DNA of 59,822 bases, the filler included. It is 4 parts of 4 records of this genome, joined end to end, with 100 filler letters (N's around TTAATTAATTAA, not from the genome) between each part and the next. Parts side by side here need not be neighbours in the genome. Positions count along the whole stretch, not along the records: positions 13,130 to 34,582 come from SRR22947727_2290; 3 more parts are not named here. One strand, written 5' to 3'. Below are positions 20,408 to 27,666 of this stretch, piece after piece. Both the position numbers and the translations under genes were made by a program. The notes beneath the pieces were generated by a model, which worked only from the letters and a program-made list of their open reading frames with translations, ran no database searches and was not told the DNA's origin. Position 1 is the first letter of the stretch. Each line of letters starts with the position of its first letter.

Positions 20408-21046
20408 TTATATGTCCCTTAAATTATTCTTTTTCCACTCTTCAATTTTTTTATGATTTCCGGACAAGAGAACCTCTGGTACTTCCATATTTTTATAAAT
20501 CTCTGGCCTTGTGTATACAGGATGATCTAGTTTTCCATCTGTAAAAGACTCAGTTAGTAATGATTCTGAATTACCAAGTGCTCCAGGTATTTTTCTTATC
20601 ATCGCTTCTAAAAGAAACATAGCAGGAACTTCTCCACCAGATACTACTGTTTTACCTACAGAAATTTGATAATCAGAGTGGATATCAATAATTCTTTGAT
20701 CAAAACCTTCATATCGTCCACAAATAATATTCGCTGATTTAAATGTATGAAGTTCTTCAATTAACGGTTCGTCGAGTTGTTTTCCTGATGGGGTTAAAAA
20801 AATATTGATATCTGAAGTTACAGAAGATATTGCATTATCTAAAGGTTCTGGCATTAAGACCATACCTGGTCCTCCTCCATATGGAGCATCGTCGACTTGC
20901 CGATAGTCACCCAATCCATACTCTCTTAAATCAGTTGTGGAGATGTTAAATAAATCATTATCATGTGCTTTCGATATGATTCCTGTTTCTAACCATGCTT
21001 CAATTAAATTGGGAAATAAAGTAACGATATTATATTTTGATAACAT
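20408..21046 (-). CDS. trmD: tRNA (guanine37-N1)-methyltransferase
   Basis: VDDAPYGGGPGM, CGRYEGFDQR, SGGE, VPEVLLSGNH. Confidence 0.96.
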   Translation of the reverse strand: MLSKYNIVTLFPNLIEAWLETGIISKAHDNDLFNISTTDLREYGLGDYRQVDDAPYGGGPGMVLMPEPLDNAISSVTSDINIFLTPSGKQLDEPLIEELHTFKSANIICGRYEGFDQRIIDIHSDYQISVGKTVVSGGEVPAMFLLEAMIRKIPGALGNSESLLTESFTDGKLDHPVYTRPEIYKNMEVPEVLLSGNHKKIEEWKKNNLRDI

Positions 21047-22880
21047 TTTCAGAACTCACATCTTCAAGATTTTTAAATGAAGTGTAAAGTGTATTTCTTA
21101 AGTAAGGTATTTTATCAGCATCTTTTATAAGATTTATAAATTCTGAATCAGTAGTTTCTTGTCCGTGATTAGCACCAGAAGCTCTGCTTATATTTTCATT
21201 TATTAATGTTCCGCCTAAATCATTTACACCTGACCTAAGCAAAACTTTTGCACCATCATGTCCAAGTTTTACCCAACTGGCTTGGATATTGTCTACTGTG
21301 TTATAAAAATAGATTCTGGCAAGCGCATGCATAAGTACAATTTCATCCCAAGTAGGACCTGGCATGCTTTTTCCTTGGAGGAAGATTGGAGACCCCATAT
21401 GGACAAACGGAAGTGGGACAATTTCTGTAAATCCTTGTGTTTTGATTTGTATGCTTTTTATTAATTTAAAATGATTAACCCATGATTCTAAATCATCAAT
21501 ATGTCCAAACATAATTGTTGCCGTAGACTTAATTCCCAATGAGTGAGCCACTTCCATTACATACCCCCACTGAGAAGAGGTAATCTTATCATCACATAAG
21601 AACTTTCTAATCCTGTCATCAAGTATCTCTGCTGCTGTTCCAGGAAGGGTTCCAAGCCCTGCTTTTTTAAGTTCTGTTAAATATGTTTCGATAGATTTAT
21701 TAACCGTACTTGCACCTTGCCATATCTCTAGAGGGGTAAAACCGTGAATATGCATATCTGGTAACTCATCTTTAATTTTTTTGACTAAATCAATATAAAA
21801 ATCCCCGGTGTAGCTTGGATGAATTCCGCCCTGTAAGCAGACTTCAGATGCTCCAGTTTGGTGAGCTTCTATAGTTCGTTGTAAAACTTCCTCAGGAGTT
21901 AAAGTGTATGGCTTTTCTTTGAGGTCTAAACTTTGAGGACCTTTTGAGAAACCACAGAATCCACACTTGTAGTAACACTGATTTGTATAGTTAATGTTTC
22001 GATTTTTCACAAAAGTGACTTTATTGCCGTGAACACTTCTTGTTAAATTATCAGCAATTTCCACAACTCTATTCACATATTTTCCAGATGTTTTAAAGAG
22101 TTCTAAAAGATCACTTTCGCTTAATGTTTTAGTTTTGTCGAAATTATCTAAAATCTTTTCAAAATTAGAAGTTTTATAATCAGATAAACTTTCAGAGGAA
22201 AAGTTTACTAATTTTGGGATTGGTACTCCGCTACCAGGATACCATTTTGTGGTTTCTCTCTTGTAACCTCGTACATTTCTTGTTTGTAAATAATTTGTAA
22301 ACTCTGTTTTTTCTAGATTCGATCGGGCCTCATTGACATCAAATAACGGTGATAATAATGTTCTCTCATATACTGGTTCTTCTGTCTTGCCCTGTAATTC
22401 AAATATCTGGTCTTTGCTCCAGTCTCGTAGAAATAAATCATCGATTCCATTTTCAATAGCTTCTTTAGCGTCATCCACAGAGTTCGCATAAATCGAGATA
22501 TTGAAATAGGTAGCGCCGTTTATAGATTGTAAAAAAGCAACGTCACTTATGTCCTCTATTAATATTGTTGAAGGCTTGTTTCTAGAGATTATCTCTAGTC
22601 CATTTTCTTTATTACCTTTGTATCTATAAATAAGTCTTTTTGAATTGTGGGTTATTTTAGAAGTAACATTTTCATCAGTAATAAACCATGCTGACGAACT
22701 TATTGAAAGATCTGAAGCTACAGTTTGAAATCCTTTAATTAAAAGATTCTCATAATTAACGGGGATTTCACTTTTTAATGTAAAAGTTGAGGTACCTTCT
22801 TTTGCTCTTGAGTTTAAGTATATTTCATTATCACTATCACATGGACGTATTCTTAAATATGAGATATTTTTATCTATCAT
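21030..22880 (-). CDS. cofH: FO synthase subunit CofH with N-terminal extension
   Basis: NRNINYTNQCYYKCGFC radical-SAM motif, EVCLQGG, PGTAAEIL, NIQASWVKLG, NDLGGTL. Confidence 0.88.
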   Translation of the reverse strand: MIDKNISYLRIRPCDSDNEIYLNSRAKEGTSTFTLKSEIPVNYENLLIKGFQTVASDLSISSSAWFITDENVTSKITHNSKRLIYRYKGNKENGLEIISRNKPSTILIEDISDVAFLQSINGATYFNISIYANSVDDAKEAIENGIDDLFLRDWSKDQIFELQGKTEEPVYERTLLSPLFDVNEARSNLEKTEFTNYLQTRNVRGYKRETTKWYPGSGVPIPKLVNFSSESLSDYKTSNFEKILDNFDKTKTLSESDLLELFKTSGKYVNRVVEIADNLTRSVHGNKVTFVKNRNINYTNQCYYKCGFCGFSKGPQSLDLKEKPYTLTPEEVLQRTIEAHQTGASEVCLQGGIHPSYTGDFYIDLVKKIKDELPDMHIHGFTPLEIWQGASTVNKSIETYLTELKKAGLGTLPGTAAEILDDRIRKFLCDDKITSSQWGYVMEVAHSLGIKSTATIMFGHIDDLESWVNHFKLIKSIQIKTQGFTEIVPLPFVHMGSPIFLQGKSMPGPTWDEIVLMHALARIYFYNTVDNIQASWVKLGHDGAKVLLRSGVNDLGGTLINENISRASGANHGQETTDSEFINLIKDADKIPYLRNTLYTSFKNLEDVSSENVIKI

Positions 22881-23992
22881 TGCTTTGGATACCCATCTTC
22901 ATCAATAACATTACTAACTTTTTCTAAAACTGGTGGACTTAACCATTCATTATTTATGAAATTTGGATAAACCGGTAATCTTTTAATTAAAGTTTGGCCA
23001 CTTACTTGAGATAGTTTCTCTAGGTTCTCAATATCTGGCCAAAGATGGTCGGGATTAACCCAATCAATAGTTTTAGGAGATATGCCACCTAAATCATTTA
23101 TACCACTCGTAAGATACATTTCTATATCTGGTGATAGATTTGGAGGTACCTGTAGTGATATTTGTGTTGGGAGTAAAATCCTTACAGTTGCGATAATTCT
23201 TAGAAACAAATCATTAATTACCTCCGCATTATTTCTCATCAATGTGTTTTGTTTAGCTCTAAAATTCTGAAGTATTATTTCCTGAATTGCGGCATTTTCT
23301 TTACATGTATTAACTAATTGGACAATATCTTCAATTAATTCGTTTTTAGTTTCTGTAATTCCAATCAGTAAACCTGTTGTCATGGGGTATCTCATTTCCT
23401 GTGCGTTATTGAGCGTTTTTATTCTCAGGTCGATTTGCTTAGTATTTGCTTTGTAATGTGCTCTCCCCTTTTCTAATAATTTAGGTGAATAGCTCTCTAG
23501 CATTAAGCCTCCTGATGGAGAATATTTTTTATAGTTAGAAATCTCATCCGATGTCATAAGTCCTGGATTTGCATGTGGGAATATATTGTATCTTTCGTGA
23601 ATCCTTTTCATATTTTCGGTTAAATATTCGTTTGTAGTTGTGAAACCAAAGTTATTTAACTGCTGTTTTGCGAAATCCCATTTAACTTCAGGCTTATCCC
23701 CTAATGTGAATAACGCCTCAAAACATCCTGAAGATTCTCCTACGGATGCTATTGATTCAACTTCTTCATAACTGAGATATGTTCCACCTTCTTTTGGTGA
23801 TTTAACAAATGTGCAGTATGCACATGAATCTTGGCATAATGTTGTAAGGGGTATAAAAACTTTAGGACTATATGTTATTTTATCTCCAAAATTTACTTTT
23901 TTTATCTCAAAAGCTTCTGACGTCAAATCAGAGGTAGGGGTAGCTCCAAATAAATAATTTTCGACTTTTTCTTTTAACATTCCTAATAACAC
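22877..23992 (-). CDS. cofG: FO synthase subunit CofG
   Basis: ITYSPKVFIPLTTLCQDSCAYC, PHANPG, QVPPNL, GINDLGGISP..DWVNP. Confidence 0.92.
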   Translation of the reverse strand: MLLGMLKEKVENYLFGATPTSDLTSEAFEIKKVNFGDKITYSPKVFIPLTTLCQDSCAYCTFVKSPKEGGTYLSYEEVESIASVGESSGCFEALFTLGDKPEVKWDFAKQQLNNFGFTTTNEYLTENMKRIHERYNIFPHANPGLMTSDEISNYKKYSPSGGLMLESYSPKLLEKGRAHYKANTKQIDLRIKTLNNAQEMRYPMTTGLLIGITETKNELIEDIVQLVNTCKENAAIQEIILQNFRAKQNTLMRNNAEVINDLFLRIIATVRILLPTQISLQVPPNLSPDIEMYLTSGINDLGGISPKTIDWVNPDHLWPDIENLEKLSQVSGQTLIKRLPVYPNFINNEWLSPPVLEKVSNVIDEDGYPKQ

Positions 23993-24077
23993 TTTAGAGT
24001 TAACAAATATTTAATAAATTTAACACAATTTACGTGCTGAATCCTTTATGATTATGATTTGATTGTAAGAGGTATTA

Positions 24078-25091
24078 ATGAACATTTCGATTTTAGGCTT
24101 TGGGCGAATAGGTAGAGACCTTCTTCGACAAACTCTCAATAATGACTTAATAAATATAGTTTCGATCTCTGATATTGCAGACAAAGAAAATCTTCTTTAT
24201 TTACTAAAGTATGACACTATATACGGAAAGCTTGATGCAGAAATTGAAAATACTGAAACAGGTTTCAAAGTAAATGGTAAAGAAATCCTTTTCAATAACT
24301 GGAAAGATGCATCTGAAGCTTCATGGGAAGATGTACAAACCGATATATTAATCATATCTACCGGAAGACAACAAGATATTGATGAAGTAAATGAGCACCT
24401 AGAAAAAGGGTGTAAACGCGTATTAATTGCATCAACGCCTAAACCTGGAAGCGATATTCAAATATATGTTCCTGGTGCCAATGATTCAGAGGTTGACTTT
24501 TCAGATAAGAAAATTTCACTGGGTTCAAATACAGCAAATGCTGTATCTCCTCTACTCAAAATTTTGAATGAGAGTTTTAATGTAGAAAGGGCATTTTTAA
24601 CAACTGTTCATGGCTACTCAAACTCAAACCGTTTAGCAGATGTCGCTGGAGAGGGGTTCAGGTTAAATAGAGCAGCTGGAGAAAATATTATTCCTAGTAT
24701 TACAAAATCTTCTGAAGTAATTGAAACTGTTTTACCATTTATGAAGGATAAAGTTGCTTCATCTTCCATGACGGTTCCAGTCCCTGATGGAAGTACTGTT
24801 GATTTAACTATTGATATTAGCAAACCAGCTACCGCAGATGAAGTTAATGAAGTAATCTCAAAAGCAGTTAAATACCTACCGTATAACAAAGTTCTAGATA
24901 TTACATTTGACCCAATAGTCTCATCTGATGTTGTTGGCAACTCGCATTCAGGCATCATTGATGGATTAGCAACTATGGAAATAAACAAAAATAAAATTAA
25001 ACTACTCGTGTGGTTTGATAACGGATGGGGTTACAGCGCGAGAATAATTGATACAATAAACAAACTCGCAGAAAGTAGTACAAATGAATAA
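24078..25091 (+). CDS. GAPDH-like protein lacking catalytic Cys (pseudo-enzyme)
   Basis: Full GAPDH fold (GFGRIGR, LLKYDTIYG, VPVPDGS, WFDNGWGYS) but SLGSNTANA replaces SNASCTTNC. Confidence 0.88.
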   Translation: MNISILGFGRIGRDLLRQTLNNDLINIVSISDIADKENLLYLLKYDTIYGKLDAEIENTETGFKVNGKEILFNNWKDASEASWEDVQTDILIISTGRQQDIDEVNEHLEKGCKRVLIASTPKPGSDIQIYVPGANDSEVDFSDKKISLGSNTANAVSPLLKILNESFNVERAFLTTVHGYSNSNRLADVAGEGFRLNRAAGENIIPSITKSSEVIETVLPFMKDKVASSSMTVPVPDGSTVDLTIDISKPATADEVNEVISKAVKYLPYNKVLDITFDPIVSSDVVGNSHSGIIDGLATMEINKNKIKLLVWFDNGWGYSARIIDTINKLAESSTNE

Positions 25092-26088
25092 CATCGCAAT
25101 AAATGGTTTCGGCAGGATTGGAAGATCTATTCTTAGGATAATTATTGAAAGTAATTCTGATCTAAACGTAGTTGCTATCAACGACCTTGGAAATTATGAA
25201 AACCTTTCATACCTTTTAAAGCATGACTCAGTTATGGGTGTATTAAATCATGAAGTAAAGCTTGATGGTGACATATTAAAAATAGATGAAAGAGAGATAA
25301 AATTAGTTTCCGTAGCAGATCCTTCCCAGCTGCCGTGGAGTGAATTAAACGTAGATATTGTTATTGAATCAACTGGAATCTTTGCAGATAGACAATCACT
25401 CGAAAAGCACATAACAGCTGGTGCAAAAAAAGTCGTGTTAACAGTACCACCAAAAGACGCTATAGATGCAACTGTTGTACTTGGTGTAAATGATGAAGAT
25501 ATTACAGATGAATCTCAATTAATTTCCAATGCTTCGTGTACAACTAATTGTTTAGCCCCTATTGCAAAAGTCTTAAATGATAATTTTGGTATAAAATCGG
25601 GTTTGATGACAACTATCCATGCATATACAAATGATCAAGCGTTAGCAGAAACTACACATAAAGATTTTAGAAGAGGAAGAAGTGCTACACAAAATATCAT
25701 TCCTACATCAACCGGGGCAGCAAAAGCTGTTGGTATGGTTCTTCCTGAATTAAATGGTAAATTAGACGGTATGGCCATGAGAGTTCCTGTTCCAGATGGC
25801 AGTGTGGTTGATTTAGTTGTAGAACTTGAAAAAAATGTTTCAATTGAAGATGTCAATAATGCTGTTAAAAAAGCTTCGGAGAATGAGCTTAAAGGAATAC
25901 TTGAATACTCTTCTGTTCCGTTAGTTTCTACTGATATTCTTCAAAATCCACACTCAAGTATTTATGATGCATCATCAACACAGCTTTTAGATGGCAATCA
26001 TATAAAAGTTGTATGTTGGTACGACAATGAGTGGGGTTACTCAAACAGAATAGTTGACCTTGTTAATATGCTTGTGAGTAAAAAGTAA
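25084..26088 (+). CDS. gap: Glyceraldehyde-3-phosphate dehydrogenase, type I
   Basis: INGFGRIGR, SNASCTTNCLAP, TTIHAYT, WYDNEWGYS. Confidence 0.97.
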   Translation: MNNIAINGFGRIGRSILRIIIESNSDLNVVAINDLGNYENLSYLLKHDSVMGVLNHEVKLDGDILKIDEREIKLVSVADPSQLPWSELNVDIVIESTGIFADRQSLEKHITAGAKKVVLTVPPKDAIDATVVLGVNDEDITDESQLISNASCTTNCLAPIAKVLNDNFGIKSGLMTTIHAYTNDQALAETTHKDFRRGRSATQNIIPTSTGAAKAVGMVLPELNGKLDGMAMRVPVPDGSVVDLVVELEKNVSIEDVNNAVKKASENELKGILEYSSVPLVSTDILQNPHSSIYDASSTQLLDGNHIKVVCWYDNEWGYSNRIVDLVNMLVSKK

Positions 26089-26090
26089 AA

Positions 26091-26504
26091 ATGGATTTAC
26101 CAAATCCTCCGCAAGCAGTTGGTAATTATATAACGGTAAAAAGAGCAGGAAATCTAATTTATACATCTGGTCATATACCAATAACCGAATCTATTAAATT
26201 TACAGGAAAAGTTCCGAGTGAAGTAAGCGTTGAAGAAGCCTATAAAGCAGCGGCTTTATGTGCGGAGCTAACTTTATCTACATTAAGTACAGCTTATGAT
26301 TTGAATTCACTAACTCCCCTCAATGTTGTCGGTTTTGTAAATTCAGATCCTTCTTTCACTGATCATGCTGGTGTCCTAAATGGTTTTACAGACAAATTAT
26401 CAGAAATCTACGATGAAAAAGCTACTCGATCTGCAGTTGGAGTAGCAAGCTTACCGTTAAATGTAAGTGTTGAGGTACAGACTATTTTTATGTTAAATGG
26501 GTAA
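26091..26504 (+). CDS. RidA/YjgF family protein
   Basis: PQAVGNY, YTSGHIP, TRSAVGVASLP..VSVEV (catalytic Arg retained). Confidence 0.85.
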   Translation: MDLPNPPQAVGNYITVKRAGNLIYTSGHIPITESIKFTGKVPSEVSVEEAYKAAALCAELTLSTLSTAYDLNSLTPLNVVGFVNSDPSFTDHAGVLNGFTDKLSEIYDEKATRSAVGVASLPLNVSVEVQTIFMLNG

Positions 26505-27201
26505 ATTAGTAGCAATCTCAACAGGGACTCAAAGTGTAACAATGTCCCCAGGTGAAATAGAATGTTCAGTGTTGAACATGGCATTTGTCACCCTATGTAA
26601 TAAATATGGTGCCGAAGCCATAATTGTACCTCCACAGGACTTATCTGTAGATTTTACAAATGCAAGCTTTGATCGCTTAATCATTACCGGTGGTGGAGAT
26701 ATAAATCCTAAGCGATATGGACAAGATTTAAATGATAAAACTGAAAGGGTTTCAGATGAAAGAGATCAGACCGAACTTAATCTTCTTCAACTAGCTGAAG
26801 ATAATTTTATAAAAACATTGGCTATTTGTAGAGGCCACCAATTGCTGAATGTATACAAAGGTGGGTCCCTACATCAGGATATTAGTGAAAGTTTTGAGAC
26901 AGATATAGAGCATCTACAAATTAACGAAGCTGCTTCAAAACACATACACAATGTCAACATATTAGAAGATACTACTTTAAATAAAGTCTCAGAAAAGAAC
27001 TTGGTTGCTGTGAACAGTATTCATCATCAAGTAGTTAACGAACTTGGAGAAAATCTAAAAATTAATGCTATTTCGGAAGATAATTTAATTGAAGGTATAG
27101 AAGGTACAACCGATTGGGAAGTCATTGGAATACAATGGCATCCAGAAAACTTGCTTGATGACGAAATAACTAATGATTTAATGAAATGGCTATTGAACTA
27201 A
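26497..27201 (+). CDS. Gamma-glutamyl-gamma-aminobutyrate hydrolase family (peptidase C26)
   Basis: TGGGDINP, AICRGHQ, VNSIHHQ, GIQWHPE. Confidence 0.88.
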   Translation: MGKLVAISTGTQSVTMSPGEIECSVLNMAFVTLCNKYGAEAIIVPPQDLSVDFTNASFDRLIITGGGDINPKRYGQDLNDKTERVSDERDQTELNLLQLAEDNFIKTLAICRGHQLLNVYKGGSLHQDISESFETDIEHLQINEAASKHIHNVNILEDTTLNKVSEKNLVAVNSIHHQVVNELGENLKINAISEDNLIEGIEGTTDWEVIGIQWHPENLLDDEITNDLMKWLLN

Positions 27202-27666
27202 ATCAAGATTAATCAGAGTTAAAATATTTTCTTTATATTCAAAGAAATCACTATTGTAAGGAATAATAATTTCTGAATCTTTTTTCAAAGTTAGATATAT
27301 TAATTCTTCAGCATAAAAATAATTTTGTACATAAAATTCAGTATTAACTTGTGAACCTACAAAAAAACCTGGCCAAGGAAGATTGTTAGAAATGAAATTA
27401 TTTATTTCACTTAAAGAGATAAGAACATCTTGATCTCTAAAGTTAACTATTTCATTAATTGAATCAAGATCTTTAAACTTTACTAGATACCGATTTTTCA
27501 AATGGGTTTTAAAATCTTCTATTTTATATTCTTCATCATTGATAAATACATCTAACCCGGATAAGTTAAATTTTCTAAAGTATACGTCATGATTAAGATA
27601 AATGTATCCATTAAGTGCGTGAGGCTTACCAAGTACTCCTAGAGGAAAAAGGGTTTTTTTAGTCAA
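27190..27666 (-). CDS. rimM: Ribosome maturation factor RimM (divergent)
   Basis: LGVLGKPHALNG N-terminal motif; position after rpsP-khpA. Confidence 0.75.
   Translation of the reverse strand: MTKKTLFPLGVLGKPHALNGYIYLNHDVYFRKFNLSGLDVFINDEEYKIEDFKTHLKNRYLVKFKDLDSINEIVNFRDQDVLISLSEINNFISNNLPWPGFFVGSQVNTEFYVQNYFYAEELIYLTLKKDSEIIIPYNSDFFEYKENILTLINLDLVQ

Follow-up and report, generated by a model that had tools for sequence, protein, structure and literature searches.

A GAPDH-like protein without the catalytic cysteine, encoded in overlap with gap in Candidatus Actinomarina, as a candidate non-catalytic GAPDH subunit

Few enzymes have been studied as intensively as glyceraldehyde-3-phosphate dehydrogenase (GAPDH), which in bacteria is regarded as a homotetramer, and the locus described here raises the question why a bacterium would keep, immediately in front of its canonical GAPDH gene, a second full-length homologue that has lost the catalytic cysteine. 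The locus lies in a 59,822-nucleotide stretch of DNA (the window, in which four genome parts are joined end to end), within the part taken from record SRR22947727_2290. The upstream open reading frame (gapX; 24078..25091, plus strand) encodes a 337 aa GAPDH-like paralogue without the catalytic Cys, here called X, and the downstream one (gap; 25084..26088, plus strand) encodes a 334 aa canonical type I GAPDH, here called B. Based on the comparisons reported below, we propose, with moderate confidence, that X may be a non-catalytic and probably NAD(H)-binding subunit that co-assembles with GAPDH.

As the original prediction had noticed, the two full-length homologues overlap by 8 nt (ATGAATAA, 25084..25091, plus strand), with the gap start codon within the gapX end, which reads as a layout typical of translational coupling. 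A Shine-Dalgarno-like AAGAGG is read from the sequence at 24067..24072 (plus strand), 5 nt ahead of the gapX ATG. Proteins 85-86% identical to X are labelled Candidatus Actinomarina sp. by NCBI, and the genomes nearest to the source of the window are about 1 Mb in size. In the nearest of them (G001), X and B are the sole GAPDH-like matches, and B is therefore the only catalytic GAPDH found there.

Catalytic residues and fold of X

X and B are 38% identical across 331 residues, and both carry the Pfam domains Gp_dh_N and Gp_dh_C, which match X with E-values of 1.9e-24 and 9.3e-40, respectively. Residues are given here in the conventional G. stearothermophilus numbering. The active-site segment reads SLGSNTANA in X and SNASCTTNC in B, and the earlier observation that in the upstream copy the nucleophilic Cys has become Asn and the second Cys Ala was confirmed: the Cys149 position is occupied by Asn151 of X, encoded by AAT (24528..24530, plus strand), two changes away from the TGT that encodes Cys152 of B (25537-25539, plus strand). 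Altogether X carries the substitutions C149N, C153A, R195L (Leu196), G209K (Lys210), R231T (Thr232, codon ACG, 24771..24773, plus strand) and E314G (Gly316, codon GGA, 25023..25025, plus strand), the last of which turns WYDNEWGY into WFDNGWGY. Arg195, Arg231 and Thr208-Gly209 are residues of the anion (Ps/Pi) sites of GAPDH. B has the SNASCTTNC segment, the His, Arg231 and Glu314.

Retained in X are the Rossmann dinucleotide-binding motif GFGRIGR (residues 7-13; 24096..24116, plus strand), Asp32, Ser148, Thr150 and the general base His176 (His178 of X, codon CAT, 24609..24611, plus strand, in TTVHGYS). It had been predicted that the motifs of the upstream copy are intact and free of frameshifts, and this stands for GFGRIGR, TTVHGY and the reading frame. 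It does not stand for the S-loop, which is conserved and not fully intact, because X has further losses there, including the second Arg of RRxR, which is Leu, and Gly209, which is Lys.

Since X is without the nucleophile, both phosphate-site arginines and Gly209, it cannot, as judged from its residues, catalyse the GAPDH reaction, and the same is predicted for the reaction of erythrose-4-phosphate dehydrogenase (E4PDH; Epd). Consistent with this, B scores 440.9 bits on TIGR01534 and X 272.6 bits, against a cut-off of 367.2, and no NCBIfam model for GAPDH or E4PDH gives X a score that reaches its cut-off; on the Epd model TIGR01532 X reaches 200.5 bits, against a cut-off of 530.55, and it has no Cys. 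Because it fails both the catalytic features that define type I and the curated cut-off, X is not filed here as a GAPDH. It is nevertheless predicted to keep the GAPDH fold. An AlphaFold2 (AF2) monomer model built with 68 relatives has a mean predicted local distance difference test score (pLDDT) of 91, with only the S-loop residues 181-210 uncertain (pLDDT 54-70), and a Foldseek comparison gives template modelling (TM) scores of 0.92-0.93 to solved GAPDHs, including 3dbv, 1gd1 and 1hdg.

The gapX clade and its defining residues

X was used as the query against 1.84 billion representative proteins, and its best relatives outside the Actinomarina-like sequences are likewise without Arg231 and Glu314. 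These relatives form one group of 20 (support 88) in a FastTree tree of 160 rows; they come from Actinomycetota, Acidobacteriota, Planctomycetota and unclassified marine bacteria, and their database names are only 'GAPDH' or 'type I GAPDH'. A scan with clade motifs, covering one genome per species, returned 80 loci, 59 of which hold an X-type gene, the remaining 21 being Bacillaceae-type single canonical gaps caught by a less specific pattern. When tandem gap pairs were surveyed in this way, as had been suggested with the original prediction, a canonical gap (SNASCTTNC, Arg231, WYDNEWGYS) was found directly after X and on the same strand in 59/59 X-bearing loci. The labels of these loci, which are those deposited with the metagenome-assembled genomes, represent about 12 phyla and comprise Neomarinimicrobiota/Marinimicrobia, Latescibacterota, Fibrobacteraceae, Acidobacteriota, Eisenbacteria, Krumholzibacteriia, Desulfobacterales, Planctomycetota, Bacteroidota, Pseudomonadales/Porticoccaceae, Bdellovibrionales and an actinobacterium. 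By its sequence relationships X thus belongs to an old clade that extends over many phyla, and is not a recent duplicate that arose within a streamlined genome.

Closer to the window, X adjoins B in 23/25 genomes of the same genus, and the two genomes without a match have a completeness of 74% and 80%. A single copy of the signature W[FY][DN]NGWG[YF] is present in each of 118/401 genomes of the class Acidimicrobiia, one unpublished genome (G256) included, and the signature never appears in a reversed control. It is concentrated in three families (59/65, 45/48 and 10/12), is also present in 2/9 genomes of another and in 2 further genomes of the class, while no other family sampled in the 401-genome survey yielded it; the distribution of X within the class is therefore patchy. 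All 27 X sequences extracted from Acidimicrobiia, that of the window included, read GSNT[AS]NA, and the 30 Asn-type X genes encode the Asn at position 149 by AAT (18) or AAC (12). As both Asn codons are in use, it is the amino acid and not the codon that is conserved. The loss of the Cys, on which the original prediction centred, thus holds for the 27/27 Acidimicrobiia copies; it does not extend to the whole clade, 17/59 of the distant X copies retaining both Cys149 and His176. We read this retention outside the class as a sign that the Cys is dispensable for the function of the clade, and not as a sign that the Asn form is accidental.

The residues that do distinguish the clade emerged from an alignment of 68 X sequences with their 68 partner B sequences. 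Arg231 is present in 0/68 X (Asn 56, Thr 11, Ala 1) and in 68/68 B, Glu314 in 0/68 X (Gly 61) and in 68/68 B, and Gly209 in 0/68 X and 67/68 B. Cys149 is kept in 16/68 X (otherwise Ser 23, Asn 17, Ala 9, Pro 2, Ile 1) and in 68/68 B, and both anion sites are damaged in 68/68 X sequences, those that retain the Cys included. Within the Rossmann motif, G7 and G9 are invariant in both sets (68/68 each), and X keeps G12 in 65/68 and R10 in 64/68 sequences. Asp32 is found in 64/68 X and 68/68 B, Ser148 in 67/68 and 68/68, His176 in 65/68 (Lys in the other 3) and 68/68, and Arg194 and Arg197 in 68/68 of both; Thr150 is present in 61/68 X. Accordingly, on the aligned residues, the gapX clade is defined by Arg231 to Asn/Thr together with Glu314 to Gly and not by loss of the Cys, and the X of the window, with Thr232 and Gly316, falls within that definition. 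The feature common to the clade is loss of the phosphate sites, in a protein whose function tolerates almost any small residue at position 149.

The phylogeny bears this out for position 149. An IQ-TREE quick tree was built from 165 rows (70 X and 95 B, with 13 near-duplicate Actinomarina loci left out), and residue 149 of the 70 X rows is S in 23, N in 18, C in 17, A in 9, P in 2 and I in 1. It has changed at least 14 times, at least 5 of them between Cys and non-Cys, and the loss of the Cys is therefore a repeated and secondary event. Only one column of the former active-site stretch 141-160 is conserved at >=90% in X.

These residues are also where a rival explanation has to be weighed, namely that X catalyses another kind of reaction or acts on another substrate, the Cys-bearing copies oxidising another, for example non-phosphorylated, aldehyde and the Asn, Ser and Ala forms working without Cys through His176 and NAD. 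The near-constancy of His176, Ser148, Thr150, Arg194 and Arg197 in X, the invariance of the Asn within Acidimicrobiia and the joint retention of Cys and His in part of the distant members would all suit such an enzyme, and a GAPDH-like C-terminal fold supports Cys-independent dehydrogenases in other branches of the superfamily. It is, however, hard to reconcile with a catalytic position that is found in six chemically different states, or with anion sites damaged even in the Cys-keepers, and no substrate-related gene is conserved nearby. Moreover, only N/T231, G314, I280 and A298 are conserved in X yet rare in other GAPDHs, and as nothing else sets X apart, no new catalytic set can be recognised. 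We therefore consider a new chemistry quite unlikely.

Within the clade, the X copies of seven loci, four from Bacteroidota (L058, L064, L073 and L107) and three from gammaproteobacteria (L060, L085 and L089), are the most degenerate members: they are without the WxDNGWGY strand motif and Asn313, reading WYHAALAMA or WHE-SLGHA instead, and still stand directly upstream of a canonical gap. Two very long representative proteins, P0124 (2089 aa) and P0130 (1455 aa), contain four and two GAPDH-like domains, respectively, of two alternating subtypes; all of these domains keep Cys, His, Arg231 and Glu314, and they form a clade of their own that is unrelated to the X clade.

Pairing of X with B, selection and expression

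Of all the features of X, only its linkage to gap never varies, and X is tied to nothing else as tightly. X stands immediately upstream of B in 26/26 Acidimicrobiia loci. The spacing from X stop to B start was determined for 81 pairs (the window, the 26 Acidimicrobiia loci and 54 of the 59 distant loci, five having been dropped for a partial gene) and is -4 nt in 29, -1 in 18, -8 in 12, 0 in 9, +1 in 4 and 2 to 88 nt in 9, so that the genes overlap or abut in 68/81 pairs. Downstream of 38 pairs the neighbours are varied, with 10/38 related to glycolysis (4 PFK, 2 pyruvate kinase, 1 PGK, 2 glycerate kinase and 1 phosphorylase), and no third gene is conserved next to these 38 pairs. Because the downstream neighbours vary and none is constant, the conserved unit is the pair alone.

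X and B also diverge together. In the IQ-TREE tree a single branch (SH-aLRT 99) splits X from B, and the 69 partner B sequences form one group (support 85), separate from Bacillaceae GAPDHs and from the GAPDHs of X-less Acidimicrobiia. The X and B subtrees mirror each other, even where the branching departs from taxonomy: Desulfobacterales, for example, lie within Acidobacteriota, and gammaproteobacteria group with a Marinimicrobia copy. Since these departures recur in X and B alike, the two genes seem to move together, and the departures and the patchy distribution in the class jointly suggest that the pair is gained or lost as a unit. For 2278 pairs drawn from 68 loci, the patristic distances of X and B are correlated (r = 0.88; Spearman 0.84), the pairs not being independent of one another. 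At one S-loop position Ala stands in 68/68 partner B and 54/68 X sequences, whereas the majority of 122 further canonical representatives have Leu or Val there, which could reflect either common descent or co-adaptation.

This constancy bears on the possibility that X is a stand-alone NAD(H)-binding protein, never assembled with B, which serves as a sensor or in a moonlighting, RNA-binding or scaffold capacity and is placed in the operon only to ensure co-expression with glycolysis. A protein of this kind would explain why X has kept the Rossmann motifs and Asp32 in spite of losing the catalytic and phosphate sites, and why the downstream neighbours are often glycolytic. It would leave unexplained the constant position right upstream of gap, mostly overlapping, in about 12 phyla, as well as the close co-divergence of X and B. 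The same is true of the S-loop, which is an element of the GAPDH tetramer core and the region of X richest in conserved columns (11/28 conserved at >=90%, against 41/309 elsewhere, neither columns nor sequences being independent). There is a precedent in trypanosomes, where a flagellar GAPDH-like protein is described as inactive with its ligand site perhaps retained (PMC4106842). On balance we regard a stand-alone role as unlikely, while leaving it some weight.

A further alternative is that X is simply a decaying duplicate, a pseudogene in the making, and two observations would agree with this: X evolves about twice as fast as B, and it has 52 columns conserved at >=90%, compared with 125 in B. 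Against it stand the intact X reading frame in 81/81 copies, the age of a clade that spans many phyla, the presence of the gene in RNA libraries and the ratio of nonsynonymous to synonymous substitution rates (dN/dS, omega). The last was calculated by the Nei-Gojobori method for 276 Actinomarina pairs, of which 54 had a usable dS of 0.02-1.5. Where dS(B) lay within 0.12-0.92 (30 pairs), omega was 0.048-0.147 for X and 0.032-0.094 for B, and for the window compared with L002, where dS is near saturation, it was 0.070 for X and 0.054 for B. X is thus under strong purifying selection, somewhat weaker than that on B, and the relaxed selection that would have indicated decay is not seen. The supposition that the upstream copy is not useless is thereby supported by an omega of 0.05-0.15, by the gap linkage in relatives and by the RNA libraries. 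Because of this selection, the constant gap linkage and the RNA libraries, decay is excluded for practical purposes, with only a negligible chance left to it, and X reads most naturally as a functional pseudo-enzyme that is coupled to GAPDH.

As to expression, contigs from 4 RNA libraries (4 studies) match both genes at 95-100% identity, and a contig bridges the X/B junction in 4/4 of them, which fits co-transcription of gapX and gap; strand, ends and expression level are not readable from these contigs. gapX is thus probably expressed. In the RNA runs X1 and X7 no contig covers 23900-24053 and the cover begins at 24072 and 24116, respectively, which could hint at a transcript start just before gapX, an uncovered stretch as such proving nothing. 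Promoter-like sites around gapX and gap are not above chance (18 versus 15.2 expected), and no terminator-like site was found in the scanned positions 23800-27400.

The surroundings of the pair in the window are as follows. A Rid/YjgF-family gene (26091-26504, plus strand) begins 2 nt past the gap stop, and a peptidase C26 / class-I glutamine amidotransferase-like gene (26497-27201, plus strand) overlaps it by 8 nt; counting gapX and gap, this makes a block of four genes on one strand without a terminator-like site. Upstream of gapX, on the opposite strand, lie cofG, cofH with an N-terminal extension, and trmD. cofG (22877-23992) overlaps cofH (21030-22880, minus strand) by 4 nt, in a split cofG/cofH arrangement. 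The cofH product, an FO synthase subunit, has 616 aa, of which residues 254-601 match TIGR03551; its approximately 235 N-terminal residues have no NCBIfam model match at E <= 1e-10.

A proposed mixed GAPDH and its relation to known systems

Based on these findings, we propose the following role for X. First, X is a conserved protein with a predicted GAPDH fold, and it would be made together with the sole catalytic GAPDH, B, from overlapping and translationally coupled genes. Second, X may co-assemble with B in mixed GAPDH-type oligomers, for example X2B2, as a non-catalytic subunit. Third, it probably still binds NAD(H), as its motifs suggest, and it would influence how stable or cooperative the active subunits are, or how they behave towards redox changes. 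X fits a dinucleotide-binding, oligomerising subunit because it keeps the Rossmann G7/G9, D32 and the S-loop core, and it also keeps the C-terminal sheet. The physical association of X with B and any regulatory effect are what we infer from these features. A structure prediction of the X and B complex gave a score of 0.57, but as one unrelated control gave 0.44, it speaks neither for nor against association. In a wider form of the proposal, which we put forward tentatively and hold at somewhat less than an even chance, the glycolytic GAPDH of about a dozen phyla could be a two-gene, two-subunit enzyme in which an ancient NAD(H)-binding, non-catalytic X is obligatory, the pair having spread horizontally as a unit.

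Several points weigh against this proposal. Because 17/59 distant X keep both Cys149 and His176, the ancestral role of the clade may have been enzymatic. As to NAD binding, which is predicted from motifs, Asn313 is missing in 13/68 X sequences. Adjacency and co-divergence are generally expected of genes that share an operon, and related genomes are not independent samples, so the correlations and a Fisher test overstate the support. DNA carry-over could account for the contigs in the RNA libraries. Finally, no natural fusion of X and B was found among longer proteins searched with the window protein and then with the clade alignment, which is weak evidence. Two apparent fusions were treated as assembly or sequencing artefacts, as P0141 ends frameshifted and P0260 joins non-contiguous parts.

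Close to co-assembly stands the alternative that X is an assembly or protection factor, which binds nascent or oxidised B transiently, in the manner of a chaperone, and is not a stable subunit. The same evidence of linkage and coupling speaks for it, and Cys149 of GAPDH is sensitive to oxidation. The data here do not separate such a factor from stable co-assembly and hold no specific evidence against it; we nevertheless think it improbable, with a slim chance of being right.

If X is a stable subunit of mixed tetramers, these would offer what a homotetramer does not, for instance altered cooperativity, NADH feedback or oxidant tolerance. An obligatory non-catalytic partner would then give a central step of glycolysis a new quaternary form and provide a clear bacterial case of a pseudoenzyme subunit, carried by Actinomarina, Marinimicrobia, Acidobacteriota, Bacteroidota, Planctomycetota and further abundant groups, most of them uncultured. 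In databases X goes by the name 'type I glyceraldehyde-3-phosphate dehydrogenase', and therefore metabolic reconstructions count a second, non-working GAPDH. Full-text literature searches, which left subscription journals largely outside and did not cover supplements, brought up no description of a bacterial Cys-less GAPDH partner, and a profile search of the PDB gave only canonical GAPDHs and engineered C149A/S mutants among the best 60 of 140 matches. As far as these searches reach, a bacterial gapX-type partner is undescribed.

Among known proteins, X resembles most the type I phosphorylating GAPDH (GapA; EC 1.2.1.12; TIGR01534; 1GD1), with which it shares the two-domain architecture, the fold and 36-38% identity, as well as the Rossmann motif, His176, the S-loop framework and the WxDNxWGY strand. 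It differs in being without Cys149, Cys153, Arg195, Arg231, Gly209 and Glu314, in scoring below the family cut-off and in belonging to a separate clade. The nearest functional analogy to the proposed X2B2 is the chloroplast A2B2 GAPDH of land plants, in which two paralogues, GapA and GapB, form a heterotetramer with one regulatory subunit. However, GapA and GapB are both catalytic, and the regulation by GapB depends on a Cys pair in an extension at its C-terminus, whereas X is predicted to be non-catalytic and has no C-terminal extension (337 aa, compared with 334 aa for B); the assembly of X with B is, besides, a prediction.

Inactive relatives of dehydrogenases have been described elsewhere. 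Vertebrate ALDH16A1 is a catalytically dead pseudoenzyme of the aldehyde dehydrogenase type, which has been proposed to act via protein-protein interaction (PMC12041015), and pseudoenzyme subunits of this type belong to a superfamily other than that of X. In its available sections, the same review of the aldehyde dehydrogenase superfamilies mentions pseudoenzymes for ALDH16 only, and its section on the GapDH superfamily names no inactive GAPDH partner (PMC12041015). The trypanosomatid flagellar protein TbGAPDHL is a GAPDH homologue without key catalytic and substrate residues that was judged inactive, its cofactor-site region being possibly retained, and its authors read it as a relic of a lost pathway; the protein is poorly conserved among orthologues (PMC4106842). 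X differs from TbGAPDHL as described there, since the latter is a eukaryotic component of the flagellum that is not encoded beside an active GAPDH, while X is a well-conserved bacterial protein whose gene stands directly before that of the active enzyme.

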